A DNA stretch of 64,000 nucleotides from Candidatus Omnitrophota bacterium (GTDB lineage: Bacteria; Omnitrophota; Gorgyraeia; Duberdicusellales; 4484-171). The notes under the pieces were generated by a model. That model did no database searches and was not told the DNA's origin. It was given only the letters and a program-made list of their open reading frames with translations. The position numbers and the translations under genes were made by a program. Shown piece after piece: positions 2,268 through 50,391 of the stretch; position 1 is the first letter of the stretch, and every line of letters starts with the position of its first letter. Where the stretch lies: NCBI GenBank assembly GCA_024231025.1, contig JAAEQW010000090.1, forward strand, positions 21,490 to 85,489. The letters are read 5' to 3'.

Positions 2268-2714
2268 ATGTTAACAGACAAAATTTATCAAGACTACGTA
2301 ACTGCCTTAAAAGCAAAGAACAAACAAAAATCTGAATTCTTGAGTTTTGTTCGCGCCGCTTTTAAAAATAAATCTATCGAACTTAAAAAAGATTCTCTCA
2401 GTGATGATGAAATTTTGGCGGTTCTGAAAACTCAGAAAAAAAGACTTCAAGACACCAAAGACAGTGTTGCTTCATCCAAAAGGCAAGATTTAATCGAACA
2501 AGCAGAAAGAGAAATCACGATTCTCAATGAGTATCTTCCAAAAGCCATGGACGAGAGTGAACTCATAGAAATAATTGATAAAGTAATCCAAGAAACAGGT
2601 GCCTCATCCCCTAAAGATATGGGCGCTGTAATGAAAGAAGTTATCGCAAGATCAGCCGGTCGAGCCGACTCAAAAAAAATAAGCGAAATAGTAAAAACTA
2701 AACTTATCTCTTAA
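2268..2714 (+). CDS. yqeY: GatB/YqeY domain protein
   Basis: A 148-aa protein with the characteristic YqeY N-terminus (KIxxDxxxALKAKNK) and C-terminal GatB-like helical segment. Confidence 0.7.
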   Translation: MLTDKIYQDYVTALKAKNKQKSEFLSFVRAAFKNKSIELKKDSLSDDEILAVLKTQKKRLQDTKDSVASSKRQDLIEQAEREITILNEYLPKAMDESELIEIIDKVIQETGASSPKDMGAVMKEVIARSAGRADSKKISEIVKTKLIS

Positions 2715-2998
2715 TTCTGTTCGCCAGTCGAATCCTTCAACATACTCTGAATAAATTCACTTACCGGATGTGTTTTATTGTTGATGGCACTGTTAACTAA
2801 GGTGTCCAGCTTGCCCGGAGATTCTATGATGCGTCTTATTTTGTCGAGATTAAAATCAACTTCATTATTAAAATAATCTGCTAGATCGACCATAAATTGA
2901 TCGACGCTATAATTATTACAATAATCGCCAAGCTCAAAAAACTTTTCTTCTCTTTGCTTGCGACGAAATTGGATATCTTCGTTATCGTTATTTTTCAT
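2711..2998 (-). CDS. Hypothetical acidic protein (95 aa)
   Basis: ORF only. It overlaps its neighbours by 4 nt and 1 nt, which suggests translational coupling. No recognisable motifs. Confidence 0.3.
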   Translation of the reverse strand: MKNNDNEDIQFRRKQREEKFFELGDYCNNYSVDQFMVDLADYFNNEVDFNLDKIRRIIESPGKLDTLVNSAINNKTHPVSEFIQSMLKDSTGEQN

Positions 2999-5094
2999 TA
3001 TTTATTTTCGGCTCGTTTCTTATCTTCAATTACTTTCTCAGCTATTTCAAAAGGCACCTCTACGTATTTTTCAAAATGCATCGAATAACTTGCTCTGCCA
3101 CTAGTCAAAGAACGCAATGTTGTCGCATAGCCAAACATCTCAGAAAGAGGTGCCTCACAAGAAACAACCTGCGTGGACCCTTTTGTTTCTATTCCAAGTA
3201 CCTTGCCTCGCTTAGAGCATATGTGACCAACAACTGAACCTACATATTCTTCGGGTGTTGTAATCTCAAGTGACATGTGCGGTTCAAGCAAAACCGGTTC
3301 ACTCTTCATAAACGCCTTCTTAAAACACTCTCTAGCCGCAAGTTTAAACGCAAGTTCTGAAGAGTCAACTTCATGATATGACCCATCAACCAACTCAACT
3401 TTAACATCTACCACTGAAAAACCAGCGTATACGCCCTTTTTCATAACCTCAATTAAACCTTTCTCGATTGCTGGAATATATTCCTTAGGTATCGCCCCTC
3501 CCTTGATGCTATTAGTAAATTCAAACCCCTCTCCGGGTTTGGAAGGAGAAACGTTCATAACAACATGGCCATACTGCCCTCTTCCACCAGTTTGCTTAGA
3601 ATGCTTATACTCTTGCTCGATTGAATTAAGGATTGTTTCTTTAAAGGCAACTTTTGGCTGCCCAACATCAGCGACAACGCTAAATTCATGCTTTAATCTA
3701 TCAACAATAACCTCCAGATGCAGTTCTCCCATACCGGAAATTACTGTTTCCTCAGTTTCTTTATCGCTGTGTACACTAAAAGTAGGATCTTCCTCTGAAA
3801 GTTTCATTAAGGCCTTGCCAAGCTTATCCTGATCGGTACGACTCCCCGACTTAATGCTAATTGCAATTACCGGAGCAGGGAATTCAATTGCTTCCAAAAG
3901 AATCTGATTTTCTAAACAAGATAGTGTATCGCCTGTAACAGTATGATCCAACCCAATCGCCGCAGCAATATCACCAGCATAAATATTTGAACGACTTTCT
4001 CTTTGATTAGCATGCATCTGTAGAATCCTGCCGATCCGTTCTTTTCTGCCCTTGGTGACGTTAATAACATATGAACCTGCGTCCAACGACCCTGAGTACA
4101 CTCTAAAATAAACTAGCTTTCCCATATGCGGATCAGCTTGAACTTTAAAAGCAAGGGCTGAAAAAGGTTCACTATCGCAAGCATTACGTTTTAATTTTTT
4201 TTCCGGATCGTCAGGATCCGACCCCTCTACTCCAGGCAAATCTGCCGGTGATGGAAGATACGAAGTTACAGCATCAAGCAAGCGCTGAACCCCTTTATTC
4301 TTGAAAGCCGAACCGCAAAGAACAGGAACTATTTTGTTAGCAATCGTCCCTTTACGAATCGCAGCAATCAACTCATCCTTTTCTATTTTGTCTTCAGATT
4401 CTAAGTATTTCTCCATCAAAGTATCTTCAAGTTCAACTGCCTTCTCAACCATAATATGATGATAATCTTTGGCTACTTCTTTATAGTCATCTGGAATTTC
4501 TTCAACATGAAAATTCTTACCCATAGAATCATCGTCATAAATATAAGCCTTCATTTCTATAAGATCAATAATGCCATGAAAATTATCTTCGGCGCCAATA
4601 GGAATTTGCAAAGGAATAACATTCGCGCCTAAATCTGCTTCAATCGCCTTAACGACTGAAAAGAAATCCGCACCAACGCGATCCATCTTATTTATAAACG
4701 CAAGCTTAGGAACTTTATACTTATCTGACTGACGCCAAACAGTTTCAGATTGAGGCTCAACCCCTCCAACCGCACAAAAAATAGCTACTGCTCCATCTAA
4801 AATACGCAAACTCCGCTCAACCTCTACTGTAAAATCAACGTGCCCGGGGGTGTCGATAATATTAATGCGCCGGTCTTTCCAGTAGCAAGTTGTTGCCGCT
4901 GAGGTTATCGTAATCCCTCTTTCCTGCTCTTGCTTCATCCAATCCATTTGAGCTTTGCCATCGTGGACTTCACCTATCTTATGCGAGCGACCAGTATAAA
5001 ACAATATACGTTCAGTTACGGTGGTCTTGCCCGCGTCAATATGGGCCATAATGCCTATGTTTCTTACTTTTTCTAAATCAATCATTCGAGCCAT
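2998..5094 (-). CDS. fusA: Translation elongation factor G (EF-G)
   Basis: N-terminal G domain [17 protein letters not shown] and NKMD motifs; 698 aa; full EF-G domain architecture recognisable. It is not flanked by rpsL, rpsG or tuf. Confidence 0.9.
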
Positions 5095-6960: not shown

Positions 6961-7230
6961 TTATTTCTCTTTTATTATCGTAACTCTATCATTAAGAAAA
7001 TAAACATACGTATGCTTGTCGCCAAAATAATAATGCCAAATAGCATTTTGCCCCTTAAAAGAAACATTGTGCGGATTACCCAACATATTCATAACATCTG
7101 TTGTAGAAGAAGATTTTTCGATTTCGCCAAATGGTGTGTTATAGGCAATCGGCTTTTGCTGAGCATAGCAAGCAGACAAAAAAACTAAAAAGCACATCAA
7201 AACTAATTTATTAAAAATACTTTTTCTCAT
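6961..7230 (-). CDS. Small lipoprotein (signal peptide with LSAC lipobox)
   Basis: N-terminus MRKSIFNKLVLMCFLVFLSAC, with the lipobox Cys at the predicted cleavage site. It ends 1 nt before the upstream receiver gene (stop-start overlap). Confidence 0.4.
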   Translation of the reverse strand: MRKSIFNKLVLMCFLVFLSACYAQQKPIAYNTPFGEIEKSSSTTDVMNMLGNPHNVSFKGQNAIWHYYFGDKHTYVYFLNDRVTIIKEK

Positions 7231-7631
7231 TAACTTATTTGGTCTTCGGTAGCACGCATTACTCTAGAATAGGAAACAGCTTTTTCAATTAGTGAAGATA
7301 TTTTATCCATATCAAAAGGTTTGGTTATATAGTTATAGGCACCCAAGGCTAAAGCTTTATCAATCGTATCATCAGAAGGAAAAGCCGTCATGATAATGAT
7401 TACCAATTTAGAATCAGTTTCTCTAATTTTACTCAAAACAGATAAACCGTCAACACTCGGCATTCTTATATCAAGCATTACCGCATCATATTGATTATTT
7501 TCGATAGACTCTAACCCTTCTTCTCCAGAAGCAACAAAGACAACTTCATATTCTTCTTTAGTCAACCAATTGATTAAAGCTGTACCAACTGGTGTCTCAT
7601 CATCAATAATTAAAATTTTTCCTTTTTCCAT
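7230..7631 (-). CDS. Single-domain response regulator (CheY-like receiver)
   Basis: ILIIDDE...D(54-equivalent)...MPSVDG...T/K motifs of a REC domain; no output domain. Confidence 0.8.
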   Translation of the reverse strand: MEKGKILIIDDETPVGTALINWLTKEEYEVVFVASGEEGLESIENNQYDAVMLDIRMPSVDGLSVLSKIRETDSKLVIIIMTAFPSDDTIDKALALGAYNYITKPFDMDKISSLIEKAVSYSRVMRATEDQIS

Positions 7632-7645
7632 TTCTACTCTTTAAG

Positions 7646-8005
7646 CTAACTAGCGTCTACTGCTGCTTTTTTTCTGGCAATGCCATCTATGTACCCAATA
7701 ATTTTATTGCGAAAAAAAGAATCCATTTCAATAAACTTTGCACCAACCAAAAATCTAGAATTTATCTCTTTATTATCACTGCACCAAACCACTTCACTTG
7801 AAGCTGATATTGGTTTTTTAAATCCCGGAAGGCTGATGTCTAAACTAAGAAGCACCCCCGGTTCTAACTTTTGAAAAGTAGGGAAGCTCACCCCTCCACC
7901 TGAAATATCATCACTAGTAGCAGAACCACCCAAAAGAGCACCTGCCAGTCTATGGCTTACACGCAAAGGTTCATTTGCCCTAATAAATTCGCGACGTTCC
8001 ATCAT
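7646..8005 (-). CDS. PilZ-domain protein (putative c-di-GMP receptor)
   Basis: RREFIR (RxxxR) and DDISGGGVSF (D/NxSxxG) are the paired PilZ c-di-GMP binding motifs. Confidence 0.6.
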   Translation of the reverse strand: MMERREFIRANEPLRVSHRLAGALLGGSATSDDISGGGVSFPTFQKLEPGVLLSLDISLPGFKKPISASSEVVWCSDNKEINSRFLVGAKFIEMDSFFRNKIIGYIDGIARKKAAVDAS

Positions 8006-8062: not shown

Positions 8063-8401
8063 CTAAAGTTGATTAAAAATCATATTGTAATACGCAAAAA
8101 CCGATTTCAAAGAATTGATAAGCATCACCATCAAAGTAATACTTAAAACACTAACCACACCACTTACAATTATTTTTGTTTTTTGCGTATAACGAGGATT
8201 ATACCAAAGTAATGGCAAAGCAAAAGGCGCAAGAGGGCCAAGAGAAAGCAGCGTAATAACAAGTATGTGAGTTTTAAAATACCATTTAATCGGTTCCTTA
8301 TTGACTGACTGTTTCACTCGCGCATCTAAAAACTCACCACAATAACGGCATTTAATAGCTTCATCCTGAATCTCTTCGGCACAATAACGACATTTCTTCA
8401 T
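8063..8401 (-). CDS. Zinc-ribbon (CxxC..CxxC) membrane protein
   Basis: [24 protein letters not shown] zinc ribbon followed by two hydrophobic helices. The start is trimmed to the MKKC methionine rather than the longest ORF. Confidence 0.45.
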
Positions 8402-8434
8402 AATTGTTTTATTATAGCACCAGAGCAAAGGGCA

Positions 8435-8887: not shown

Positions 8888-9247
8888 TCACTCTCTGCCT
8901 TGGGTGCGGTTCATATCCTCTAATACATTCTGAATATCCACTTTTGTTTCAGGAATATTTTTAGTTATAATTTCCCAAACAATATCTAAATCAACTCCAA
9001 AATACTCATGGATTGTAATATTGCGTAGTCCGACCATCTTTTTCCAGGGTATATTTTGATATTTCTCCTTAATATCTTCGGGTACATTCCTTGCGGCTTC
9101 ACCGATAATTTCGATTTTGCGAATAACTGCATCCTCTACCATTTCATTCTCGGAAAAATCTTCATAAGATAAGCCTTTTATATATTCTTCAATCCTATTC
9201 ATCGCTCCTAATATATCTTCGATGAACAGTTTATAATTTCTTTTCAT
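8888..9247 (-). CDS. hepT: HepT-like (DUF86) HEPN-family toxin of a nucleotidyltransferase TA pair
   Basis: A 119-aa protein with the DUF86/HepT fold signature (EIIGEA...R(x)4HxY-like region, NITIHEY). It overlaps the upstream MNT gene by 4 nt. Confidence 0.7.
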   Translation of the reverse strand: MKRNYKLFIEDILGAMNRIEEYIKGLSYEDFSENEMVEDAVIRKIEIIGEAARNVPEDIKEKYQNIPWKKMVGLRNITIHEYFGVDLDIVWEIITKNIPETKVDIQNVLEDMNRTQGRE

Positions 9248-9534
9248 ACGTACACTACTTCTTTTAGAATCGCGTCTCTCAATTGGGGCTTTAAGGCTTT
9301 CTTTGTTACCAGGTCCACTTTAATTCCCAAAGCATCCTCTAGAAAATTCTTTAAATCGATAAACTCCCAACCTATTTTACCAGAGAATTCTACCAAAAGA
9401 TCAACATCGCTTTCTTCAGACGCTTCTCCATGGACAAAAGAACCAAAAATACCAATATTTTTTACTTTAAATTCCTTTTGTAACCGTGGAGTGATTTTTC
9501 TCAAAATTTGTGTTATCTCTTCTCTTGTTTTCAT
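9244..9534 (-). CDS. mntA: Minimal nucleotidyltransferase (MntA-like antitoxin)
   Basis: GIFGSFVHGEASEESDVDLLVEF is the classic GS..(x)n..DxD nucleotidyltransferase motif. Confidence 0.8.
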   Translation of the reverse strand: MKTREEITQILRKITPRLQKEFKVKNIGIFGSFVHGEASEESDVDLLVEFSGKIGWEFIDLKNFLEDALGIKVDLVTKKALKPQLRDAILKEVVYV

Positions 9535-9619: not shown

Positions 9620-12600
9620 TCACGCCGCAAGATCAAAGACAGGTTCTTCTTGTTCCTGATCAGCTTTTTTGAAATCACGCTCAATAGTAATGATTTGAAA
9701 TGTAAAGCCTTTGAAAGTTTTAATGTCAAAAGGAAGTGACTCAAAATTAGAAAATGGCGCAATGGAGCCACCTGTTTGCGACTCTTCATCTATCTCTAAC
9801 ATTTCTGGATTAAGATCAATACCGCCGGGATTGGTGTTTGGGAGTGTAGCGTCGACCTCTCCCCCGGCGGTTTGTTGTGCCGACGCTAAATAATCTAAAT
9901 GATTTTTCTTTTCATTATTTTGGTCAAACAAATTAGCCCCGACCAATGCTGGTCCTGCACTATTTTCTATAGAAGAATTTTGTTGAACGGTTAGAATTTG
10001 GTTACCATCAAACGCTTGTTTTAATTTATCCCAATAATTCTTTTCGCCTATAACCAATAGATTACCCTTTGTTTTTACTTCTGAGGATAAGCGCTTGGCA
10101 ATTTTGGAAAAATGATATCGATTCATCCAATAGCAGCTGACATATTCAGCGCAAGCAGTTACCACTTTGGTTCCAACAACTTCCCTGTTTTTAGCCTTCG
10201 TATGCATCGCTAAGATTTTCTCATCAGCAATTGTTCCATTGGATGATTGCGCGGCCCGAACCTCTCGATCCCACTCCATAAACAAATCGATCTCACCATA
10301 TTCTTTACACACCCTAAACAAATCATGCCTAATATCAACAAGTTGACGCCCCTCTGCTAAACTATCATCCAAAGATATAATTTTCTTGAAAAATCTAGAT
10401 GAGGTTGCGGCCAAATAAACCAGGGGTCCGTATAACGTTAAGAATGTATCCTCAATCTTGTTACGCTTAAATCCCAAATTCTCCATCTTAATCGTAAACG
10501 CATCGATCAAACCAACCAATTCGTTAATCCGCTCGAAACCACGGTCGCGCGTAAACCCTACCGCAGCAACATTACTAACGCCACCGCGGAGAAGCGCTTT
10601 TTTTATCGAACGCAATTGCTTTCTGTAAAGATGTGTTTGCCATTGGAAATTGAGATCAAGATCTAAAACAAGATCTTTAAAATACTGAGCATCACCATCA
10701 TCGTAAGCTTTGATTAAAAATTCTAGAAATTGACCGATATCCTGAGAAGCTTTCACAGGCTTAACAATAAAAACATCTTTCTTGTCTAGCGAATCTCGTT
10801 TTATCCCCAATTCATTTTTCCCAGATAATTCTCGAGCATATCTAGTCATGCCTAACAAATGGCACCCCCCAACAACAGTCATCGCAACACCATCCTTACC
10901 TACAATCCCGCTTGCTTCATGCAGCGTGTTTTCAATCATTGCCCGATCCCTATCTTTTGCCGATAACATAAAAAAGTTAAAAGAATCGCAATAATTACGA
11001 ATTACCCCCAATGGGATGCGTTCTTCTACACCAATCTCTTTCATAATTGCCAAAACTTCTTTCGAAGCAATTGAAGTCGATTGGCTCAAATCGTATAACC
11101 GATCAGACAAATCAATACTCTCTTTAGCGGTAAGAAATTCAACAATCTTCTTTCCATAATAAGCTGCAGCCTCTAAATAGACACTCGCTTCTTTACGCAG
11201 CAAATCATCATCGATAGCCACAAAATGCACCTGATCAATGAAATCCCTCATATGTACATGAAAATATCCTAGCACCCCGTAGGTAAGGAGAGTAAAATCA
11301 TCGGCAATCTCTTCAATATTATTTTCCAAGTAATTGACGATATCTTCTAAGTTTGAAACATTATTACCTTGCTTCTTTTTATCAGCAATGTAGATCCGGA
11401 CATTAGAAAAATGCGCCTGCATATTCGCGATAATATGCCGATGCCCATTGAGAGCTTCTTTCCGTACTCGTTCTACCCCCTGATGAGTTAATTCTAATCC
11501 CAACATAGCAAGTTTACCGCAAGCCGCTATCTCTCTAATCGTTTCTATATCTTTTTGTAACGAGTCCATCACCTTGCGTTCAGTTTGAAGTAAAGTGAAA
11601 AGATCCCAACAGTATCTCACGCTGGAAGCAGCATTGAGAACATTATTAGAAAGAGCCTTCTCAATCATGTCGTATTTTAAGGAATCGGCATGGCTATACC
11701 CTAATATCGCTAAGTCCCCTCCCGAAGCAATGCCTCCTCGAACATATCTAAGCACGCTATCATGATTTCGCACACTGCGATTACTGACACCGGAAGCTCT
11801 GGCAATAGCCTCTGACACCGGACCCACACCAAGGCTAACCGCTCCTACACCAGCCGCCTTAAAGAAACTCCTTCTGTTTATTTCCATCGGCTTTAGTATC
11901 TCAGCGCCTCTATCCTTATACTCAGCTTTAATCTCTGATAGATTGCGCTCAGTTACATCAACTTCAACATTGATCCCTATTTTCTCAAGCTTTTTCTCCA
12001 GGGCCTTGGCATTTTTACGGTCAAATGGATCAGCGTCAATCAAATATTCATATAGACCGTCTATCTTCTCTCCTTCAGGCAGGCGCTCATTAATCAACCT
12101 CTCAACATCCAATATTGTCATCATTAAACCGAGTGGCATATCCTCTTTCTTCAAAACTCCAGCAAAAGCTAAACCAAAAAAATTAGCCAACTCTTCTTCC
12201 TGCTCCTTCAATCCCTTAGAAAGCCTGCCAAAAAGACGCACTTCGTCGAACAAAGCATGGGCAGTTTCATGGCCATCAACAAAACGAATCGCTTCCTCCA
12301 GTGTTGGAACCCGACCAAATTTATCAGCAAGATCACTGAGCTGCTCTTCCAACTGCTTGCGATTCAAATGAACCCGCCGAATTAACCTACCATCCTCATG
12401 AAACCGAGCATGCAACCCGTGGATTATATTGGCGATGGTCAGTGGAGAAACTAGTGGTGGAAAATATTCAGTATCGGCGTCGGAAGTAACTGGCACAACT
12501 ACATCAGAGAGCCCTTCTTCATCGCTGGTAATTTGATGACTTCTTGAATTTGGATCAATATCGACCCTTGACGAAGGAATGCTAACAGCCTGGGACTTCG

Positions 12601-15600
12601 CACTCATAGCGGCTTTCTTTAATAATGTTTCCATATTAGAAAGCATCATCGATACTTCTTCGATGCTGTTGGCAGCAATAACATTATCTAAATCCGGCAA
12701 CTCCAGGCCTTCTGCTTTTAAATCGCTGGTTAACTCATTATTTAATTTTGCCATATATAATTGCTTACCGGCACCGCCATAATTCAAAACAATAACTTTT
12801 TTATTGTTTTTCAAAGCTACTACTGCTTCGTGAATGGTCCCTAAACTACCATTCAACACGATCATGACATCCGCCACCATTGCCATACCTACACGGCGCT
12901 GGTGCATATCCTTACCAATATATTGTACCGCTACTCGATTATTAGGAGATATCCTACTGTAACCAACAGCACTCATTCCTTGAGGTAATAAAGCAAAAAA
13001 CCGTTCATCACTATTCTGACTCAACGAACAAACCCCCTGATAAACATCTTTTCCTACCCCTGGAACACCACCGGTAAATACATAACCTTTATCTTTTACG
13101 TAATCAGCTAAGCATCTCCCTAATTCTTCTCCTATTGTAGGAGAGTAATCTGATGACGGGCTAACCGCGCCGATAACTCCAATCCTTATCCCTTCATACT
13201 CTTGCCGTATATATTCTGCTTGCCATTGTATTTCATCCCCTTCCTGATCGCTACGTCTTCGCGTTACGTCTTTTTGACCAGGAGGAATCTTTTCGTGAAA
13301 AAATATTTCTAGCAACCATCGAGTCGTATCTGGACTATCTACCCCTACCCCACTCGGCATAATCAACATTGGGTAATCATTCCCTTCAACACTATAACTA
13401 TTACCTATTTTAAGAATATCTTTCTGTTTTATTCCTGTTTGTTGAGCAAAGAAACTGGCGGCATTTCCTTTATTTACTTCCAAAGGCACTATATTCAGGT
13501 TAACTTCAGTATCAACTACTTTATATTTATGCATCAGACCTAAATCACCTAAAGCCATTTTTAAAGCAATAATCAACTCCTCCTTTTGCTCATTGGTAAC
13601 ATTATCTACAGCAATAATCGCTGAACGTTCAGTTACTTTAAAACCAAATTTCTCTAAATCCGTTGATTGTAATTTACCAACTATGCTTCTTCTATCCTGT
13701 GAATCAATAGCGTAACTGGTAAGGATCTCATCATTCCCTACGTCATAACACCCTGCCCCATTCTGCTCAAAAACATAAAGATTTTTTAATGCTTCTGAGT
13801 TTACTCTCCTGCGCATTCTTCTAACAAACACTTTATCTATCGACTTCGATCTGCCGCTTACAATACCCACCTTATACCCTGCCTCTAACATCCCGGCAAT
13901 TAAGTCTAAAATTTCACTGGATATTTTTTTCCCTCGAAGCTTCAAGGTGCCATCAATATCTAAGAGTACCCCACCGAACCTTTTATCTGCCCTAAAAGGC
14001 AAACTATCTAAATTATCTTTTTCAGCGACCGGCACTGCTCTTTGTTCATTCAAATCTACTAATCGCTCAACAATAGCAAATTGCCTTAGAAACTCATCTT
14101 CAAAAGTATGAGACGGATTTACTCCTTGACGGTTAACAACAAATCGTTTGCTGATATGATCATCGATGGAACCGCTAAGATGTTTATCCTGACCATTAAG
14201 CTGTCTCATGTAATCAGGCATATCCTGATTAGAAACATTGACAGCAGCAACAAACAGTCTCGATTGATTAATGGGATCTAATCCATCAATGCTGTCAGGA
14301 TTAAACGCCTCTGGCTTATCTCTCACTTGCCGATTTGACCATCGCCCACCCATAGTTACTGAAATATCGCTACGATTCATCGGATTATAATACTCACTTC
14401 TATAGGCATTGGCATCTCGATCTGGTATTGCTAATTCTTGCTTTAATCTTCTCAACTTATCTACAAATCTCATAATCATTTCATATGAAGAATAAACTTG
14501 ACCTTCATTACGTTGAGGATTGAAAAAATCCTGAAAATATTCCTGCTCTCTTAATTGATCCGCGCCTTCAATAAATTTGTCTCCTGCTAAAACATAATTA
14601 ATCAAAAGCATGACGTTAACAAAGGCTTTATGGGCATCAGGATAACGTGAACCACCTTGCACGTCACGCATAAAACTATTACTGCCGTCCATCATTACTA
14701 CTTCGGGTTGTTCTTTTAACATGAATCTTAAAGTATCATCATCGAAAAGCTGTTCTTTTCTTTTTGCACAAATAAGATGTTCATCATCATGGGCCTCAGT
14801 AGAACCAACCCTTACTTCAGCGATTTTTATCCCTAAGCTCTCTAAGCGAGTCTTTATTGGCGTCGCGAGAAACCAACCATAAGAAAAATTCGGCACGACT
14901 AAAACCTTTCGACCGGAATTTTTTAGAGCAACCACAAAGTCGAAGAACTTTTTCACCTCATAAGAAGTATAAGATAAGGCGGTTTTGGTTGAATCCTCCA
15001 CTTCATCTTGCGATAAACGGTTAAAATTCTCTAATATCTCCCTAAACCACTCAAAAGTATAAGTCTCTCGTTCTGACTCTCTCCCGCACTGACGAACATA
15101 CTCATTACAAAAACGACTATACTCTAAAGCTACTTTTAATTCATCATTAGGGTCAAAAGAATTATTAACTTGAGGATTATATACTCTCCAAATAGCCATC
15201 AAACTCTGGGGATCATTCGCCGCATCAATTCTTTGATTAAGAGTAGCCGAAGGATAAAATCCATTCTCTAAAAGCAATTTAGTATTTTCTACAAATTTCT
15301 GAGATATTTCATCTGACCGTAATGGCAATATAGAATCATAGGTAGAAGGATTATTTAATGCAGGTATAAATGTCTGTGATTGATGCAAAACCACAATAAA
15401 ATCACAAACGACCTCAAGATTTTCCTTGGTAACGAACTCGCTTTCAACTAATCTTTGCAGCATAGAGTACGCGGATTCTACTGTTTGTGCTGGTAAATGA
15501 TCCTTTACCTTTAGAGAAAATACAACTTCAACCATAATATCAAGGATGGCTTTTGCCTGGTTATTATCTGCAGCATGCAGCAATTTTTCTTTTAGAGACT

Positions 15601-18600
15601 CGAGATCGCTATATTCTAATCGAGGTTGGCTATGAATCAAACCAACACGCAATGCGTCGTAAAAAAATCTTCTACTATCATACTCAATACTATCGCCGGT
15701 TAAACCCAGAATAACCCTCGCTCTTTCCTTGGTGAACTCAACTTTACCGAAAAGACCCCTAAAAAATTCGAAATCACCAGATTTTTCATCCCAACAAGAG
15801 ATCAAAAGAGAAGCAAGTTGAATTTTTTCGAAACTACCATCTTCTGCCCAGCCAATAGCATCAATCAGCCCTCCAAATGAAAACGGCAAAAACGTAAGAA
15901 ATTCATTGCTTAAGATGCTAAACAAGCATTCTCGCGCTTGTGAATTTTGCACTTTACCAATTACTACCGCTAAATTATTAAATAAACTTGGATCTTTTCC
16001 GACTACATGCACTAAATCTTTCGCGATTCGTTTAGCTACCAAATTCTCACTTGAGATGCCTCCTTGAGAAACAATCCCGTCAATTGCTTTAACAATCAAA
16101 CCAGGATTACTAACTAATACCATGCCAATCCCAGCACCAACACGACCCTCTGTCCTTTCTACCACACTAAGTATAGTTTTGAAATCATCCTCATCGGGTC
16201 GCATCTGCTGATTACCAACGAGAGCGTGAGCAAAAACCGCGCTAAGCTCTCTTAAAGTTTCTTCATCTTCTGTGGTTGCTAATTTTGTAATAAAAATATC
16301 CTTGCTTGATTCAGTCAAAGAAACGTTCTCATTATTTTTGAGGAGGTTTTTTAAGACAGTGGCGGCTCTTTTTAAATCCTGCTCGTTATCAGCCCTGTCA
16401 ATTAAGACAAGTAGGTCTTCGGCATGATCTTGGCTGCTAAAACAGTGCCCGCAAACATAAGCGATCGCCGCTTTTGTTGAATCATTCTCTGTCTGGTTGA
16501 ATGATTGCGTCACTTTGTCGTTTAAACCAGAAAAATTAATAGCGTCTTCTTTAATTGCTCCGTAGCTGAAAGTCGCCGCCAAACGCCCATCAGTTTTTTC
16601 AAGCGCGGAAAGAATAGAGTCTACGTCTTCAGGGTCTAACCATTTATCTACTTTTGCTGCCCATGCTATATTAGGTAAAAGAGCCAGGATACTCTCTAAA
16701 TCTTCTTCATTTTCTTGATCACTAAACTCAGAGACAAGAGAGTTAAATTTGTTAAGAACGATTCTAAGACCTGCTTCGCTAATATTTAAATTATCCCTGT
16801 TTTTTTGCTTAATAATTGCCATCAAGATTGAAGATGCTTTAGCTAAAACCTGCTTGTTCTTCGAATCTCTTATTAAATTCAATAAAACTTCAAATTCTTG
16901 AGCATTAAACTTAGAAACAAATGGAAGAGCTATGTCGCGGCCAAGCGCATCATCGAGAACGGAAAGGATTGCTTCGCGCAAAGAATCATCACCAATACTA
17001 GCCAACGCACTGAGGATATCAGAAACTAAAGCTCTTGGCGCGCTACTGTCGCGAAATGCTGAACTAATAATACGCTCAAACCAATCAAAAGTAATCTTAC
17101 CCGATACGCTTAGGGTAATAAGATCAGAAATTAATTTAGAGACCGAATCATCTTTTTTGCCACGCCGTAAAACACTAATAAGAACAGATTCAACAGTACT
17201 TTTTAAATTTTCAAATTGAACATTATTAGTTGCTAAATCAACCATCTCCGCAAGCACATCAGGATTACACTCTAGGGCACCCTTAAACACCCAACCAAGA
17301 TGCTCTTTAGCCCTATCATCTACGGCTCTTTCGCGAGCCTGATATAATATCATTATTTGGTTACAATTAAGCTTAATTGCAGGATCGTCTCTATCTTGTT
17401 TTAAAGCTAGTGCGAGCGAACGCATAGTCGCATCATCATCTGAATTTTCTATCGCGGTCAAGATTCGAGTAGTAAAGCCCGGGTTGTATTTTACCGCCTC
17501 CCCTAAAACAAGCGCGTAGCAAACCTTGATTTCGTTCCTTTCAGGATCATGCGTTGATTGTTCCGATACTGAAAGAGCTAATTCAATTATGCGCGGATTA
17601 TTAGATAATAGCCGTTCTCCAATAGATTTATTCACCCCCCACATGTAATCATCTGAAACACCGACGAATATTCCAGCTAAAAGTGCCAGGTTTTCTGCGG
17701 TTTGTTCTAAATTATCACTAATAATCTCATCTTTAAAAACAAAAAAAGCAGAATTGAAAAAATCTTCAAGCCTCTGCTCATGGATAGATTCCCTTGTGCT
17801 ATTAGTATTCAGCACAACGCTCAACAGTTTATCGAGAATCTCATCTAAATTTTCTCTAGTTTGTTCTATACTATCTTCTACTATGATAATATCCTTTAAG
17901 GACGTAAGAAAATTGCTAAACAAGGGTTGAAGGTAACTTTCCGGCCCAGAAGCTTTTCGCTTAGGACTACTGGATCTTCGTATTTTATTGAGAAAAAATC
18001 TTAGCTCATTGCCGATCTCCTGTAAATTAGTAATCGTTTGTTTAGGGTCATCTTCTACAATAATCACATCTCTTAAGGAGGAAATACCGAGAAGTATGTA
18101 CTTTGCGTCATCGATCCCTGCTTTAGTACATAAATCTATTAATTCCTGTGGTAGCCCTTGTGAGTGTTTAATAATTTCCTGAAAACCAGAAGGAAGCTCG
18201 TCAAACGGTATGTCAGTAAAAGGATAGAGCTTTTGAAAGTATTCCGATTGCACTGAATTTCTCTGAGTCTGATTTTTTTTAATAAATGTAGTTAGGGCTT
18301 TATCGGGCCCGAGTAATTTTGGATACTCATCCGGCATAATTTGTTTGGCTGCTGCTCGCAGTAAATCATGGCCTGACGCTTTCGAAGAGAGCAATTTGTA
18401 ATTTTTAAAAGCACGCAAAAGAGCGTCACCCTCAATAGTCAATCGTGCCACCTCCGAATTTTGATTATTCTTTAAGACTAACTTCCCTTTAAGCCATCCG
18501 CGCTGAGTCAAAAACCTAAAAACTCTGTCTAAGCCAAAACCACACAATAGCTTGGCAATCGCCCCTTTCACTTCTATTTTTATTAATCCTCTCTTTAATA

Positions 18601-20428
18601 AATACTCGCCAATCTCATGCGTCAATGCCAAGCCTTTTAATTTTGGATCATTATAAATATCACGATAAAGAGCAATAAGATTCGGATTGTCCAAACCTTG
18701 TTCCCTGGCAAAACCAAATAAATCTTTAATTAACTTCAAAAAAGTAAAAAGTTTGGGTCTGTCTTTAGAAGGAAGTGTTTGAGCTAAATCCAATATCGCT
18801 AAAAAAAACTCAAGTCCAGTTTCCTGATCTCCAAGGTCCATTCGCTCAATACTCTCCCGAGCCAATAAAGCCGCATCAAGATCCTCCAAGTCAAGATCAA
18901 CCGCCCCCAACTTTTTCCCCTCACCATCAAACACCTCAACAACCCCCACGCTTCCTTCAACCTTAACCTCTCCTGCTACAGCCTGATTTCCGATTTGCGC
19001 AATATCGCCTGACTTATCCTTTGAAGAAACATCAGACGGCGATTCTTTGAGCTGACTACCAGAGACTAATGCCCCATCAATGCCATCAATTTTAATTTTT
19101 GCCATTGTTGGATGATCATCAGTTTCTTGTTTAATCAGTTGATCATGTTCTGAGCTTGTGCCAACTTCTAATTGGTCTGGAACCATTTTGACAATTTCTT
19201 CAAGACTCGCGCCCCCCGAATAATATCTGCGATTGAGTTTTTTATTTAAATGCGGATCAAAATCACGACGAATATAATTGTAAACACCTTTTTTGTAAGC
19301 TTCTAAATATTGGTTATAGATTTTCTCTTTTATCTCGGGGTCATCCCCTTCAACCCCGGCAATTTTGTTTTTGTCGAAATATATCTGGTCTAGGATGTTA
19401 GTCTTCGCTTCCGGGGACACGTACCGTTCTCGGCCTTCGGCCTGCGCTTCCCTGCCCGTCCGGCAGGCGGGCGGTACATGTCCCCGTGGGGTTTCGACAG
19501 TCTGGCGAAGCCGTTTCTTAAACCAGGTTGCCAAAATCAATGCATTATATATTTGACGTAATTGACTGAAAGACTGCCCATTGTTTACTTCTTCTTCGAT
19601 TGCCGGCAAGATCACTTCTTTTGCAATTTGGGTAGAAATATTATTAGAGGGCACGGCACGCCGTGCCCCTACGATGTTTTGTTTTTGGGCAACACCTGCC
19701 TGCCCGTCCGGAAGGCGGGCCTGCTGGTAGGCAAGGTAATCTTCTTCCAACATAATCTTAAGACGACTTTCTTTAACAAAGGCACGATTTCCTGCCTGAT
19801 GAACCACACATTTTTCAGGAACAATCCAAATCTTATTAAATGTATTAAGTGGTATTTTGGTTGTGCCATACAACTGATAGGCTCGACTATAAACCTTCTT
19901 CCAAAATTCCTTGCCTAATGGACTCTCCGGATAAGTTAAAGATGCGGTTAATTGCTTTAAAATATAATCTTCGCCTAAAAGATCGCGGCCCATATCAGTT
20001 AAGCCTAATTCGTAAGGAATTACGCTATCTTTTTCATAAGGCGAAAGATTAACCCAAAGGTCTTTTGCCGGAGTGGTTAACGAAGTAAGAAAATACTTTA
20101 TTAGTTGTTGGGTCTGAATCTTTAACTGCTCATCACTAAGGACCGCATCACCTTCATCAATAATAAAGCTAAATTTAAATGGGTCATTAGGCGAAAACTC
20201 TAAGCCCCGCAAGGTAATTGGCTCAAAATTGAGGGTAGTTTTGACAAGCTTAGTGGGAGCAGGCATATACTCCAATGCGGAAGTATAGCCCGGACGAACC
20301 AGATATGTGGAAAAAATAGATAGCAGAAAAACACATATAAAGAACCCGATTAGGGCTCGCAGTCGAATTCCCGCTCGTTTTTTATAGAATAGTAAAATCA
20401 TAAACCAAACACCATATAAATGTAACAT
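9620..20428 (-). CDS. Giant multi-domain protein (3602 aa). It has an N-terminal TM anchor plus a roughly 400-aa domain shared with the 38194-44445 protein. Downstream are long HEAT/ARM-like helical repeats, a HAD-IIB phosphatase-like domain (motif LLDIDGTL, about 13300-13990), a SLOG/LOG (TIGR00725-like) Rossmann domain (about 12770-13200), and a TraB/GumN/TIKI-like domain with GxxH...GxxH (about 10800-11750). A conserved C-terminal module is shared with the two other giants.
   Basis: One uninterrupted 10.8-kb ORF. The domain calls rest on motifs read from the translation: DIDGT; GGxPGxG...NGSLGTIHE; ILGYSH...VVGGCHLLG. The C-terminus is PGGIDLNPEMLEID...PFDIKTFKGFTFQIITIERD. Confidence 0.85.
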   Translation of the reverse strand: MLHLYGVWFMILLFYKKRAGIRLRALIGFFICVFLLSIFSTYLVRPGYTSALEYMPAPTKLVKTTLNFEPITLRGLEFSPNDPFKFSFIIDEGDAVLSDEQLKIQTQQLIKYFLTSLTTPAKDLWVNLSPYEKDSVIPYELGLTDMGRDLLGEDYILKQLTASLTYPESPLGKEFWKKVYSRAYQLYGTTKIPLNTFNKIWIVPEKCVVHQAGNRAFVKESRLKIMLEEDYLAYQQARLPDGQAGVAQKQNIVGARRAVPSNNISTQIAKEVILPAIEEEVNNGQSFSQLRQIYNALILATWFKKRLRQTVETPRGHVPPACRTGREAQAEGRERYVSPEAKTNILDQIYFDKNKIAGVEGDDPEIKEKIYNQYLEAYKKGVYNYIRRDFDPHLNKKLNRRYYSGGASLEEIVKMVPDQLEVGTSSEHDQLIKQETDDHPTMAKIKIDGIDGALVSGSQLKESPSDVSSKDKSGDIAQIGNQAVAGEVKVEGSVGVVEVFDGEGKKLGAVDLDLEDLDAALLARESIERMDLGDQETGLEFFLAILDLAQTLPSKDRPKLFTFLKLIKDLFGFAREQGLDNPNLIALYRDIYNDPKLKGLALTHEIGEYLLKRGLIKIEVKGAIAKLLCGFGLDRVFRFLTQRGWLKGKLVLKNNQNSEVARLTIEGDALLRAFKNYKLLSSKASGHDLLRAAAKQIMPDEYPKLLGPDKALTTFIKKNQTQRNSVQSEYFQKLYPFTDIPFDELPSGFQEIIKHSQGLPQELIDLCTKAGIDDAKYILLGISSLRDVIIVEDDPKQTITNLQEIGNELRFFLNKIRRSSSPKRKASGPESYLQPLFSNFLTSLKDIIIVEDSIEQTRENLDEILDKLLSVVLNTNSTRESIHEQRLEDFFNSAFFVFKDEIISDNLEQTAENLALLAGIFVGVSDDYMWGVNKSIGERLLSNNPRIIELALSVSEQSTHDPERNEIKVCYALVLGEAVKYNPGFTTRILTAIENSDDDATMRSLALALKQDRDDPAIKLNCNQIMILYQARERAVDDRAKEHLGWVFKGALECNPDVLAEMVDLATNNVQFENLKSTVESVLISVLRRGKKDDSVSKLISDLITLSVSGKITFDWFERIISSAFRDSSAPRALVSDILSALASIGDDSLREAILSVLDDALGRDIALPFVSKFNAQEFEVLLNLIRDSKNKQVLAKASSILMAIIKQKNRDNLNISEAGLRIVLNKFNSLVSEFSDQENEEDLESILALLPNIAWAAKVDKWLDPEDVDSILSALEKTDGRLAATFSYGAIKEDAINFSGLNDKVTQSFNQTENDSTKAAIAYVCGHCFSSQDHAEDLLVLIDRADNEQDLKRAATVLKNLLKNNENVSLTESSKDIFITKLATTEDEETLRELSAVFAHALVGNQQMRPDEDDFKTILSVVERTEGRVGAGIGMVLVSNPGLIVKAIDGIVSQGGISSENLVAKRIAKDLVHVVGKDPSLFNNLAVVIGKVQNSQARECLFSILSNEFLTFLPFSFGGLIDAIGWAEDGSFEKIQLASLLISCWDEKSGDFEFFRGLFGKVEFTKERARVILGLTGDSIEYDSRRFFYDALRVGLIHSQPRLEYSDLESLKEKLLHAADNNQAKAILDIMVEVVFSLKVKDHLPAQTVESAYSMLQRLVESEFVTKENLEVVCDFIVVLHQSQTFIPALNNPSTYDSILPLRSDEISQKFVENTKLLLENGFYPSATLNQRIDAANDPQSLMAIWRVYNPQVNNSFDPNDELKVALEYSRFCNEYVRQCGRESERETYTFEWFREILENFNRLSQDEVEDSTKTALSYTSYEVKKFFDFVVALKNSGRKVLVVPNFSYGWFLATPIKTRLESLGIKIAEVRVGSTEAHDDEHLICAKRKEQLFDDDTLRFMLKEQPEVVMMDGSNSFMRDVQGGSRYPDAHKAFVNVMLLINYVLAGDKFIEGADQLREQEYFQDFFNPQRNEGQVYSSYEMIMRFVDKLRRLKQELAIPDRDANAYRSEYYNPMNRSDISVTMGGRWSNRQVRDKPEAFNPDSIDGLDPINQSRLFVAAVNVSNQDMPDYMRQLNGQDKHLSGSIDDHISKRFVVNRQGVNPSHTFEDEFLRQFAIVERLVDLNEQRAVPVAEKDNLDSLPFRADKRFGGVLLDIDGTLKLRGKKISSEILDLIAGMLEAGYKVGIVSGRSKSIDKVFVRRMRRRVNSEALKNLYVFEQNGAGCYDVGNDEILTSYAIDSQDRRSIVGKLQSTDLEKFGFKVTERSAIIAVDNVTNEQKEELIIALKMALGDLGLMHKYKVVDTEVNLNIVPLEVNKGNAASFFAQQTGIKQKDILKIGNSYSVEGNDYPMLIMPSGVGVDSPDTTRWLLEIFFHEKIPPGQKDVTRRRSDQEGDEIQWQAEYIRQEYEGIRIGVIGAVSPSSDYSPTIGEELGRCLADYVKDKGYVFTGGVPGVGKDVYQGVCSLSQNSDERFFALLPQGMSAVGYSRISPNNRVAVQYIGKDMHQRRVGMAMVADVMIVLNGSLGTIHEAVVALKNNKKVIVLNYGGAGKQLYMAKLNNELTSDLKAEGLELPDLDNVIAANSIEEVSMMLSNMETLLKKAAMSAKSQAVSIPSSRVDIDPNSRSHQITSDEEGLSDVVVPVTSDADTEYFPPLVSPLTIANIIHGLHARFHEDGRLIRRVHLNRKQLEEQLSDLADKFGRVPTLEEAIRFVDGHETAHALFDEVRLFGRLSKGLKEQEEELANFFGLAFAGVLKKEDMPLGLMMTILDVERLINERLPEGEKIDGLYEYLIDADPFDRKNAKALEKKLEKIGINVEVDVTERNLSEIKAEYKDRGAEILKPMEINRRSFFKAAGVGAVSLGVGPVSEAIARASGVSNRSVRNHDSVLRYVRGGIASGGDLAILGYSHADSLKYDMIEKALSNNVLNAASSVRYCWDLFTLLQTERKVMDSLQKDIETIREIAACGKLAMLGLELTHQGVERVRKEALNGHRHIIANMQAHFSNVRIYIADKKKQGNNVSNLEDIVNYLENNIEEIADDFTLLTYGVLGYFHVHMRDFIDQVHFVAIDDDLLRKEASVYLEAAAYYGKKIVEFLTAKESIDLSDRLYDLSQSTSIASKEVLAIMKEIGVEERIPLGVIRNYCDSFNFFMLSAKDRDRAMIENTLHEASGIVGKDGVAMTVVGGCHLLGMTRYARELSGKNELGIKRDSLDKKDVFIVKPVKASQDIGQFLEFLIKAYDDGDAQYFKDLVLDLDLNFQWQTHLYRKQLRSIKKALLRGGVSNVAAVGFTRDRGFERINELVGLIDAFTIKMENLGFKRNKIEDTFLTLYGPLVYLAATSSRFFKKIISLDDSLAEGRQLVDIRHDLFRVCKEYGEIDLFMEWDREVRAAQSSNGTIADEKILAMHTKAKNREVVGTKVVTACAEYVSCYWMNRYHFSKIAKRLSSEVKTKGNLLVIGEKNYWDKLKQAFDGNQILTVQQNSSIENSAGPALVGANLFDQNNEKKNHLDYLASAQQTAGGEVDATLPNTNPGGIDLNPEMLEIDEESQTGGSIAPFSNFESLPFDIKTFKGFTFQIITIERDFKKADQEQEEPVFDLAA
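19411..19489. repeat. GC-rich palindromic element inserted in-frame in giant gene 1. Its inverted arms CCGGGGACACGTACCG / CGGTACATGTCCCCG flank a nested GCCCGTCCGGCAGGCGGGC hairpin. It is translated as ...PRGHVPPACRTGREAQAEGRERYVSPE...
   Basis: The arms are exact reverse complements except for one mismatch. GC content is far above the surrounding gene. The paralogous giant 2 has no insert at this position. Confidence 0.6.
19649..19722. repeat. Second in-frame GC-rich palindromic insert in giant gene 1. It contains the GGGCACGGCACGCCGTGCCC hairpin plus a CTGCCCGTCCGGAAGGCGGGC hairpin and is translated as ARLPDGQAGVAQKQNIVGARRAVP.
   Basis: Both hairpin types also occur intergenically, at 8564-8583 and at 781-800 / 24757-24777. 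The paralog (giant 2) carries a different palindromic element at the equivalent position. Confidence 0.55.
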
Positions 20429-33403: not shown

Positions 33404-33898
33404 TTACTTTATGTTTCTTATGGAATTCTGAGCAGTATCATGTTTGTTTTTTAAAAGATTTGATATAGTTTGATATGCTCGGTTTTCTTTCTGCATATTT
33501 TCCTGCTGCTTTTCGCCAATTAAATTTGGATATGGAACCGGCACAGGTGCTGGAGGTGTTTTGGGTGATGGCGTTTTACAAACATTAGGAGTTGAATCGG
33601 TCCCGCCAGATGAATCGTCAGATGAATCGCCTGAATCACCACCGCCTCCGGCAGATGCACCAGTCGTAAGTCCTCCAAGAAAAGATGTGTCCGGCTTAAA
33701 GCTATTTACATCAATCCCCTTAAAGGCTTCACTTGCATGCTCTGAAAGGTCAGTTAAATGTTCACTTTGCTGCGGGGGGTGTGAAGCATCTTCCTTTGAA
33801 GTGCTTTTCTTTAAGGAGCTTTTTATTTTGTCGTAAACACCAGCTGAAGCAGAATTAATAAAAAACACAGCCACAAACATTGTTAACAATAATTTCAT
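33404..33898 (-). CDS. Secreted Gly/Ser/Asp/Pro-rich low-complexity protein
   Basis: Signal peptide MKLLLTMFVAVFFINSASA. The mature part contains GGGDSGDSSDDSSGG and PPAPVPVP tracts. Confidence 0.4.
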   Translation of the reverse strand: MKLLLTMFVAVFFINSASAGVYDKIKSSLKKSTSKEDASHPPQQSEHLTDLSEHASEAFKGIDVNSFKPDTSFLGGLTTGASAGGGGDSGDSSDDSSGGTDSTPNVCKTPSPKTPPAPVPVPYPNLIGEKQQENMQKENRAYQTISNLLKNKHDTAQNSIRNIK

Positions 33899-34018
33899 AT
33901 TTATAATCCTCCCTTCAACACCCATAGTATAACTTGCACCTAATTAAAATCAAGATTTTTCTCTCACAATAAACACTAACAAAATCAAAAAATTTTATAT
34001 TTTGCGTGATCCCAATGT

Positions 34019-44537: not shown

Positions 44538-45260
44538 TTATATTTTCTCGAGGCAGGCATCCGACACCCATGCTACTTTACCATCGCTACGTTTTAACTT
44601 ATACCACCCTTGCTTATGGTCAAGAATTAAGACTTTTTGACCCTCGTAAAGGGTAAAATGAGTTGTTGCCATATCAAGTGGTTCAAACTTAGCTTGCACG
44701 TCTGAAGAAATTACCACTGCCTGGCTATTTAAAAATTCAAGCTTTGCCTTAAGCAAAAACGATCCACCAAATAAAATAATTACCAAAATCACAGCAGTAA
44801 AAATAAATCTAAATCGATTTACCTTATTAATAAAGCAAAAAGCTAATGCGCAAACTAAAGCAATAAAAACAAAAGAAAGAAAAACGCTTACCCCATCAAT
44901 GGGAAAATCACCAATTACCCTCATAAACCAAGGCTTCCGCTCAGTAACATTATGCTTTAATAACGATGATACATAATTATAATTTGCCACCAGATCAGCA
45001 TCATGCGGCATAATTCGCTTTGCCCTCTCATAATATAACACCGCCTTAGCCAATTTGCCTTGCTTAACATAGCAATTACCGATATTATAATGAAGATTAC
45101 CACTCACTTTTTTGAGGCTCAATATCTTTTGATATTCTAACAGTGCCTTAGAGTATTGACCTTGAGCATAAAAATCATTTCCACGCTGAAAATCACCTCT
45201 CTCTTGGGCATAACCGCTTAATACCGCAAAAAACAATATAAGTATAAAAATCTTTTTCAT
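44538..45260 (-). CDS. batE: BatE-like TPR protein with C-terminal SH3b domain
   Basis: Signal peptide, TPR repeats, a TM segment and a C-terminal SH3-like region (KVLILDHKQGWYKLKRSDGKVAWV). It is the last gene of the Bat operon. Confidence 0.55.
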   Translation of the reverse strand: MKKIFILILFFAVLSGYAQERGDFQRGNDFYAQGQYSKALLEYQKILSLKKVSGNLHYNIGNCYVKQGKLAKAVLYYERAKRIMPHDADLVANYNYVSSLLKHNVTERKPWFMRVIGDFPIDGVSVFLSFVFIALVCALAFCFINKVNRFRFIFTAVILVIILFGGSFLLKAKLEFLNSQAVVISSDVQAKFEPLDMATTHFTLYEGQKVLILDHKQGWYKLKRSDGKVAWVSDACLEKI

Positions 45261-48902: not shown

Positions 48903-48903
48903 A

Positions 48904-50390: not shown

Positions 50391-50391
50391 A

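Follow-up and report, generated by a model that had tools for sequence, protein, structure and literature searches.

A 3602-codon gene of a Candidatus Omnitrophota bacterium combines HAD-IIB and SLOG/LOG-like domains and belongs to a family with fixed ends and variable cargo

Members of the Omnitrophota are very small bacteria that have not been cultured and that apparently live as predators or depend on a host. Published genomes portray them as dependent on a host and as able to make only part of their cofactors and amino acids. Their giant genes pose an acknowledged puzzle as to the site of the embedded enzymes and the reason for their fusion. Multi-enzyme giant proteins of this phylum have already been published, and the domains reported as frequent in the relevant passages of these papers are HAD, methyltransferase, GHKL and Lysine_decarbox (LOG), with HEAT scaffolding (West-Roberts 2023; Nielsen & Lui 2026). 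Here we describe G1, a giant open reading frame (ORF) at 9620..20428 on the minus strand of a 64,000-nucleotide (nt) stretch of contig JAAEQW010000090.1 (assembly GCA_024231025.1, Candidatus Omnitrophota bacterium, contig positions 21,490 to 85,489). This whole stretch is called the window, coordinates refer to it, and the parts of G1 lie on the minus strand as well. Since multi-enzyme giants of Omnitrophota have been published, G1 is not a new kind of object.

G1 is a single uninterrupted frame of 3602 codons plus stop. It is 100% identical to the NCBI protein P0001 of 3593 amino acids (aa), [quoted passage not shown] (MAG, metagenome-assembled genome), encoded on a contig of 89.8 kb, and is an intact, genuine gene from a Candidatus Omnitrophica genome. 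The true start is likely the second Met, M10, at nt 20401, which gives 3593 aa, because P0001 and the paralogs (MILFLQ..., MIIFFY...) begin at the equivalent Met. At least four more paralogues with the same MAG locus-tag prefix, GY858, are found among the matches listed.

G1 belongs to a protein family in which the ends are fixed and the middle varies. The fixed parts are an N-terminal hydrophobic helix, an N-terminal domain of ~360 aa (N-domain) and a C-terminal module of ~70 aa (C-module); G1 has the helix, the N-domain and the GGIDLNP module. Members range from ~900 to more than 6,000 residues, and the named members are almost all from Omnitrophota. A database search with full-length G1 gave 963 matches at E<1e-5, and the following details rest on the best 120 of these 963. 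Nearly all of them align over 10-15% of G1 only, which is the N-domain, and every source name is Omnitrophica or Omnitrophota. Their lengths are about 2,000-6,200 aa (shortest 1,988 aa). Their metabolic cargo in Pfam includes GAPDH, TIM, PGK, enolase, phosphoglucomutase, PPDK, PEPCK, malate synthase and isocitrate lyase. Methyltransferases, GHKL ATPases, protein kinases, M48 peptidase with ABC1, NUDIX, radical SAM and HEAT repeats are also carried.

The N-domain of G1 corresponds to aa 55-413 (19190..20266), as delimited by similarity to G2, another protein encoded in the window, and to the database proteins. It is always located at the extreme N-terminus of the family proteins. G1 aa 55-409 and G2 aa 85-401 are 41% identical (E=1e-80). 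An earlier interpretation of this DNA from its letters and ORFs, here the sequence-only reading, had placed G1 behind a shared anchor domain, and this is confirmed by the match to G2 and by the 963 database proteins, nearly all of which are connected through the N-domain. No relative of the N-domain was found in Pfam, NCBIfam or PDB, including a profile search of PDB sequences, which gave no significant match.

The C-module of G1 is at aa 3533-3584 (9677..9832, NPGGIDLNPEML...FKGFTFQIITIER) and was recognised by family comparison. It consists of GGIDLNP... followed by F/L-x-G-F/L-x-P/F-x-I-x-x-I, and is present at the end of 90 of the 120 best matches; relatives are likewise absent from Pfam, NCBIfam and PDB. 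G2 carries both the N-domain and the C-module. G3, also in the window, is the final 2706 aa of the 4029-aa protein P0005, in which the N-domain is present. By these relationships G1, G2 and G3 are assigned to one protein family. A metagenome scan added more than 580 family loci. The 46 metagenome members that are complete at the 3' end are 439-3553 aa long, and 38 of them have the C-module. Many short members (~900-1,700 aa, among L027-L106) keep both the N-domain and the C-module, and for this reason "giant" is one extreme of a length continuum.

A Kyte-Doolittle scan of the whole of G1 gives one peak, 2.46, at aa 26-44 (LIGFFICVFLLSIFSTYLV, 20297..20353), the sole hydrophobic helix. It is preceded by KKRAGIRLRA, with five basic residues, and followed by a segment of near-neutral charge. 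We read the helix as a signal anchor or a long signal peptide. The basic stretch before a single helix predicts an N-in/C-out topology, with the passenger beyond the cytoplasmic membrane.

Between the fixed ends, the cargo of G1 has four parts: a unit of three domains (X, HAD and SLOG), a module with an HExxH motif, a sequence resembling a twin-arginine (Tat) leader, and a stretch of ~670 aa found nowhere else. BLAST comparison with the homologues that were retrieved shows one conserved unit at G1 aa ~1590-2356, made up of an unannotated stretch and the HAD domain. Domain X is located in this stretch, at aa 1741-2150 (core 1757-2110; 13979..15208), directly before HAD in G1 and its close relatives. 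Its signature is VVPNxSYG, GSxExH, VVDG(S/T), (R/H)(Y/I)PD and (Y)RN, and nine positions (N, G, GS, H, D, PD, N) are invariant in 18 sequences. Eighteen loci with X were found in a genome scan. X has no relative in Pfam or PDB, and profiles built from 8 and from 18 sequences gave no significant match against PDB sequences. A structure model of X is alpha/beta, with a predicted local distance difference test score (pLDDT) of 65 and a predicted template modelling score (pTM) of 0.67; it has no significant Foldseek match in PDB.

The order X-HAD-SLOG is not restricted to G1. L002, a protein of an independent MAG, aligns with G1 aa 1741-2575 at 45% identity over 870 aa, through X, HAD and SLOG. 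The N-domain and the C-module are present in L002 as well, and its sequence after SLOG differs from that of G1. The same order is repeated in L003, L004 and L005. X-HAD is duplicated ahead of SLOG in P0002, P0003, L004 and L005, and in BLAST the SLOG domains of P0002 and P0003 are 48-51% identical to that of G1. A precomputed listing for P0002 and P0003 names PF24161; the Pfam search gave no match to it even at E<=10, and it was not used. The pair of HAD and SLOG recurs in at least six other Omnitrophota proteins, always with X, a domain that the sequence-only reading had missed. The sequence-only reading had considered the fusion to be novel. A single ORF with HAD-IIB and SLOG/LOG-like domains behind a shared N-terminal domain does exist, while the novelty was overstated, since the fusion recurs in these proteins and multi-enzyme giants have been published. 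The sequence of G1 is already in GenBank, and its interest lies more in the family and the unannotated modules than in the combination of HAD, SLOG and TraB.

X is also seen outside the long proteins. X-HAD is present in an 1112-aa protein of a MAG labelled Elusimicrobiota, and X occurs in shorter proteins of MAGs labelled Deltaproteobacteria, Woesearchaeota and Methanosarcinales, in which no Pfam match for X was found either. In a 398-aa protein from a MAG labelled Methanosarcinales it is nearly stand-alone. L006, L007 and L009-L011, from MAGs labelled Woesearchaeota or Methanosarcinales, have X in proteins of 400-1,340 aa on contigs assigned to archaea. This could be either true cross-domain spread or mis-binning of Omnitrophota contigs, which is plausible for an archaeon-attached epibiont.

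The HAD-IIB phosphatase domain is located at aa 2154-2362 (13343..13969). Pfam Hydrolase_3 scores 49.8 bits over these residues against a cut-off of 20.9, and NCBIfam HAD-SF-IIB (TIGR01484) scores 51.2 bits against 41.8, covering profile positions 2-215 of 221. Both scores are above the curated cut-offs and bear out the HAD-IIB-like phosphatase that had been placed at about 13300-13990. The Asp pair singled out in that reading for a check is present as D2157/D2159 in motif I (LLDIDGTL). Motif II is represented by S2191 and motif III by K2320. Motif IV is GNSYSVEGND (N2343, D2351), in which the last Asp, D2351, is retained and the first is Asn throughout the subfamily in a seven-way alignment. 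The best PDB relative of the domain is the alpha-phosphoglucomutase-type HAD-IIB protein 4bnd.

The SLOG cluster-4/LOG-like Rossmann domain is located at aa 2414-2561 (12746..13189), where Pfam PF18306 (LDcluster4) scores 44.4 bits against a gathering cut-off of 26.3. Its motifs are the TGGVPGVG loop, HQRR (R2511/R2512) and NGSLGTIHE (E2534). GxGTxxE and the upstream Arg align with 6y01, 1rcu and 5zbj, the last of which is a cytokinin riboside 5'-monophosphate phosphoribohydrolase, and they are conserved in the seven sequences. Among solved structures, the TIGR00725-like proteins 6y01 and 1rcu are its nearest relatives. The equivalog models for LOG fall short (TIGR00725, 27.4 vs 106.9; TIGR00730, 18.7 vs 96.35), so that the domain is LOG-like and not an equivalog; Pfam Lysine_decarbox gives 21.3 bits against a cut-off of 27. 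Of the TIGR00725/LOG-like domain proposed at about 12770-13200, the SLOG/LOG-like part holds, with PF18306 above its cut-off, and the match to TIGR00725 itself is weak. The PGGxGTxxE motif named along with it is found as a GxGTxxE type with E2534 and the upstream R2511/R2512.

DprA belongs to the SLOG superfamily, and the DprA of the window (35972-36844) has a sub-threshold LDcluster4 match of 19.3 bits. PF18306 matches near the threshold are therefore not specific, and the 44.4 bits of G1 are well clear of it.

The seven-way alignment of HAD-SLOG keeps DxDGT, the Lys of motif III, GNS...G[DN]D, TGGVxGVG, RR and GT.HEA wherever sequence is present; the fragment of L004 lacks the start of HAD (motifs I and II, including DxDGT). 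In P0002, P0003 and L004 a hydrophobic pair is found between HAD and SLOG (e.g., FIFLPFLATGG...FVLGCLTGIAATIMIF), whereas G1 and L002 are without it. If this is a hairpin or a single span, HAD and SLOG of these three proteins might be on different sides of the membrane.

The HExxH module follows SLOG at aa 2646-2848 (~190 aa; 11885..12493) and was defined by comparison of five copies: one in G1, three in P0007 and one in P0010, which are three of the 122 proteins examined. DGHExxHA (DGHETAHA in G1, with H2720, E2721 and H2724) and EExLAxxFGxAF are invariant in the five copies. Four of the five end in (K/R)PM, and the copy of P0010 ends in KTM. The module has no match in Pfam or PDB, a profile search of PDB sequences included. 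From its motifs it looks like a minimal zincin.

Immediately after the KPM of this module begins the Tat leader-like stretch MEINRRSFFKAAGVGAVSLGVGPVSEAIA (aa 2846-2878, 11795..11893). It scores 16.6 bits with TIGR01409 against a cut-off of 16.7, and 14.8 with Pfam TAT_signal against 22.7. With a score under the cut-off and a position at aa 2846-2878 of 3602, it is not classed as a Tat signal peptide. Similar internal leaders are found in the paralogs P0026 (aa 454, ARRDFLKIAGLLLAGLVIPLPSRANSE) and P0077 (aa 1235, SRREFLMMGALGAIGLALIGESTSVQGQE). Three such leaders are observed in 122 giants against 0.29 expected, and no shuffle out of 200 gave as many. They are most simply read as relics of separate exported genes that were captured in frame. 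An internal translation start at M2846 was considered and rejected; the only candidate is GAGG 19 nt upstream, which is not a good ribosome-binding site.

Sequence comparison shows the order of the domains, the conservation of catalytic residues, the X-HAD-SLOG unit and the bracketed plan of the family, and we are much more confident about the domain anatomy of G1 than about its cellular location or substrates. Enzymes of the LOG family split nucleoside monophosphate-type substrates at the N-glycosidic bond into base and sugar phosphate, and sugar phosphates are also what HAD-IIB enzymes act on. Scavenging would therefore be a suitable task for a tethered X-HAD-SLOG unit. With slightly more belief than doubt, we propose that G1 is an envelope-tethered unit for scavenging nucleotides or sugar phosphates within the bracketed family. 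The helix would be a signal anchor, and the passenger of ~3,500 aa would lie beyond the cytoplasmic membrane. The LOG-like domain would act on nucleoside monophosphate-type substrates and release base and sugar phosphate, the HAD-IIB domain would remove or move phosphate, and X might add another step or substrate binding. Such a unit would serve a host-dependent bacterium. The Tat leader of G1 may be a relic of a once separate exported gene, captured in frame, and such relics fit cargo derived from exported proteins. An extracellular location is also predicted for most domains of the Omnitrophota giants in passages of West-Roberts 2023.

Several points weigh against this proposal. The Asn in place of the first Asp of motif IV means that the activity of the HAD domain is not assured. 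The score of the SLOG domain is far below the TIGR00725 cut-off, and we know of no substrate for SLOG cluster 4. X is without a known relative, and its role is thus a guess. The hydrophobic hairpin between HAD and SLOG in P0002, P0003 and L004 suggests that the two domains need not share a compartment. G1 aa 2640-3520 are known from one assembly only. HAD-IIB enzymes, LOG-like enzymes and the ATP- or NAD-dependent glycolytic enzymes of the paralogs are normally cytoplasmic, which makes an extracytoplasmic position odd. Some extracellular predictions are called unlikely by West-Roberts 2023 themselves, and the same contradiction about location is met in the passages of that paper and of Nielsen & Lui 2026.

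The last of these points leads to the alternative that survives best. The helix might only tether G1, and the enzymes might be on the cytoplasmic face as a fixed "metabolon" that works on common cytoplasmic metabolites. The cargo of the family is classic cytoplasmic metabolism (GAPDH, PGK, TIM, enolase, PPDK, PEPCK, malate synthase, methyltransferases), and no secretion system adjoins G1. Passages of Nielsen & Lui 2026 place giants that have only transmembrane segments and carry regulatory or metabolic cargo on the cytoplasmic face. However, the charge around the sole helix predicts N-in/C-out, and the internal Tat-type leaders of G1, P0026 and P0077 suggest exported proteins as the source of some cargo. 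We regard a cytoplasmic scaffold as unlikely on balance, though it deserves to be kept in view.

The HExxH module with its adjacent leader could be considered in another way, as part of a self-processing polyprotein. The HExxH module would be a zinc peptidase that cuts at its own (K/R)PM end and frees a Tat-exported TraB/TIKI-type hydrolase. HExxH and the downstream EE are invariant in the five copies, four of which end in (K/R)PM, and in G1 a near-canonical Tat leader (16.6 vs 16.7) comes next. Proteolytic processing of Omnitrophota giants has also been proposed in passages of West-Roberts 2023. On the other hand, the module has no similarity to any known peptidase in Pfam and PDB searches. 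It is present in only three of 122 proteins, and its repeats in P0007 lack Tat leaders. In addition, the C-module comes behind the fragment that would be released, in keeping with a chain that stays whole. This makes a self-processing polyprotein very improbable. A broader version, rather improbable in our judgement, is that the bracketed family is a general cargo carrier, in which genes, some with Tat leaders, were captured in frame, and that in G1 a cut by the HExxH module at (K/R)PM would release a Tat-competent TraB/TIKI-like enzyme. If this were true, a host-dependent bacterium with a small genome could use the carrier to position arbitrary enzymes at its envelope or outside it.

The putative hydrolase corresponds to the TraB/TIKI-like motif region, aa 2900-3200 (10829..11731). 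Four motifs, contained in LAILGYSH (H2913), AMLGLELT (E2979), RDRAM (R3160) and VVGGCHLLG (H3190) and starting at aa 2908, 2976, 3160 and 3185, are in the order and spacing seen in Escherichia coli YbaP, a TraB/GumN protein. The four-motif pattern matches G1 and YbaP and is absent both from 121 other giants (342,321 aa) and from 20,000 shuffled versions of G1; its significance is inflated, as the pattern was written after G1 and YbaP had been seen. Pfam gives no family in the region at E<=10, and PDB sequences give no match. A hidden Markov model (HMM) built from eight diverse TraB/GumN proteins and run without filters scores G1 at 1.0 bit, which places it seventh among 122 giants. Smith-Waterman comparison of the segment with YbaP is at chance level (local z=0.14). 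Semi-global alignment with YbaP aligns both GxxH motifs with a z of 2.3, which is too weak to count. Comparison by hhalign is weak (P=0.0022, probability 13%; score 28.9, where 60 control windows reach at most 27.6) and puts RDRAM and GGCHLLG in register. A single-sequence AlphaFold model of aa 2880-3235 has a pLDDT of 35 and is unusable. A TraB/PrgY/GumN/TIKI domain had been proposed at about 10800-11750. Its two motifs, ILGYSH (aa 2908-2913) and VVGGCHLLG (aa 3185-3193), do exist, but the domain is not recovered at the profile level, and membership of G1 in TraB/TIKI is unproven.

The same proposal had connected SLOG with a conflict or signalling device, in which SLOG would be the sensor or processor of a nucleotide-derived signal and the TraB/TIKI-like region a protease or pheromone-shutdown effector. 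SLOG proteins sense or process nucleotide signals in several conflict systems, according to a passage of Brzozowski et al. 2019, citing Burroughs 2015, and a HepT/MNT toxin-antitoxin pair and a PilZ gene are just downstream of G1. We give this very little credence. No family among the PADLOC models matches G1 at E<=0.1. The catalytic Arg and Glu of the LOG type are kept, an argument for a hydrolase over a pure sensor. SLOG is conserved together with X and HAD, not with effector domains, and the TraB-like region, itself unproven, is in this protein only. Neither the signalling nor the pheromone-shutdown part of this reading finds support.

The TraB-like region is followed by an orphan tail, aa 3201-3520 (9869..10828), with no detectable relative anywhere. 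An exhaustive phmmer search with aa 2850-3520 against 1.84 billion representative proteins returned only G1's own protein. That the last third (aa ~2640-3520), for which this search found no relative, whose start resembles the N-terminus of a separate exported protein and which is known from one MAG only, could be a functionless assembly chimera or recent read-through is hardly tenable, because ~2.6 kb stays in frame in DNA of 38-40% GC, in which stop codons are common, the C-module shared by the family comes next in that frame, there is no composition break, and the HExxH module at its start is conserved in other family members.

Upstream of X, aa 450-1700 (15329..19081) have no annotation and little similarity to anything. 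Pfam gives no family there at E<=1; a weak XopAD/SKWP match is seen at aa 1133-1291 (E=0.024). Among the retrieved homologues, only P0017 is similar to aa 560-730. About 1500 aa of HEAT/ARM-like repeats had been suggested for G1, but no HEAT or ARM profile matches it at E<=1, whereas the same search gives HEAT_2 at 5.5e-111 in G3. Three tandem repeats of ~55 aa with the pattern (L/F)(R/K)D.II.(E)D..EQT..NL..(I/L) are found at aa 784-924 (nt 17657-18079) and match no known repeat family.

Two GC-rich palindromic sequences are inserted in frame in the N-domain. Insertion 1 (19412-19486) has arms CGGGGACACGTACCG/CGGTACATGTCCCCG of 15 nt and a spacer of 45 nt, and insertion 2 (19649-19715) is a hairpin GGGCACGGC/GCCGTGCCC. 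The 13-mer CCGGACGGGCAGG is common to both and is found nowhere else within the window. Local GC is 0.53-0.58 against about 0.38. Insertion 1 encodes aa ~310-345, a column which is mostly gaps in 120 other N-domains. The insertions resemble Rickettsia-type palindromic elements in their in-frame entry into genes.

The genes around G1 are ordinary chromosomal genes (EF-G, aldehyde dehydrogenase, ABC-F ATPase, FeoB, citrate synthase), and no dedicated secretion system was found among the neighbouring genes. Downstream of G1 are the HepT/MNT toxin-antitoxin pair (8888-9534), a small zinc-ribbon membrane protein (8063-8428), the PilZ gene (7646-8005) and a response regulator (7230-7631). The position of the PilZ gene fits a remark in West-Roberts 2023 that pilZ genes commonly come after Omnitrophota giant genes. 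A complete Bat-type operon (44538-52259, minus strand) is directly upstream of G2 and contains MoxR AAA_3, DUF58, an unannotated ORF, BatA/VWA, VWA, TPR, BatD and TPR+SH3; its link to the giants is not obvious. A small ORF (33404-33925) has a weak Tox-PAAR-like match of 26 bits against a cut-off of 31.

The bracketed family is simpler and mid-sized (about 0.9 to 6 kaa, at least 963 members), with one helix and two fixed ends, which makes the puzzle of the giants easier to test. The topology of a single helix is measurable, the end-pieces are expressible, and X-HAD-SLOG is conserved enough for purification and assay. The N-domain, the C-module, X and the HExxH module are candidate new domain families.

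The published Omnitrophota giants are "Archaeovorins" (West-Roberts 2023) and a "multi-enzyme metabolic cluster" (Nielsen & Lui 2026). As described in passages of these papers, they share with G1 the phylum, enzyme domains including HAD and LOG on one membrane-associated chain, and pilZ downstream. They have 10,000 to 147,000 aa, many membrane helices and typically SecA_DEAD, C39 or S8 peptidase domains, whereas G1 has 3.6 kaa, one helix and none of these three domains in Pfam. G1 thus falls outside the Archaeovorins, which are defined in West-Roberts 2023, in the passage concerned, by more than 30 kaa, many helices, SecA_DEAD and C39/S8. In the searched passages on Omnitrophota giants, fixed N- and C-terminal end-pieces, X, the HExxH module and internal Tat leaders were not found.

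The individual domains can be compared with known enzymes. G1 resembles HAD-IIB proteins of the Cof or phosphomannomutase type, such as 4bnd, in motifs I-III, a cap-sized insert and a motif IV of the type "...G(N/D)DyP"; unlike them, its subfamily has Asn first in motif IV, and domain X always precedes HAD in G1 and its close relatives. With LOG/TIGR00725-type proteins (1rcu, 6y01, 5zbj) it shares the Rossmann domain, the Gly-rich loop, GxGTxxE and the upstream Arg. It differs from them in that the domain is inside a giant chain and in that the Pro and the second Gly of PGGxGTxxE are replaced (NGSLGTIHE). For TraB/PrgY/GumN/TIKI proteins, with YbaP as the example, the likeness is in the order and spacing of strand-GxxH, strand-E, R[DN]xxM and strand-GxxHLxG, without HMM-level similarity to the superfamily profiles.

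For the arrangement as a whole, MARTX-type modular toxins offer a comparison. In these toxins conserved ends flank an exchangeable array of enzymes, and an internal protease is thought to process the chain. The G1 family has no sequence relation to them and no RTX repeats, its cargo is of the housekeeping type, and its processing is putative. The likeness is in the plan: fixed N- and C-terminal regions are placed around exchangeable enzymes in both.

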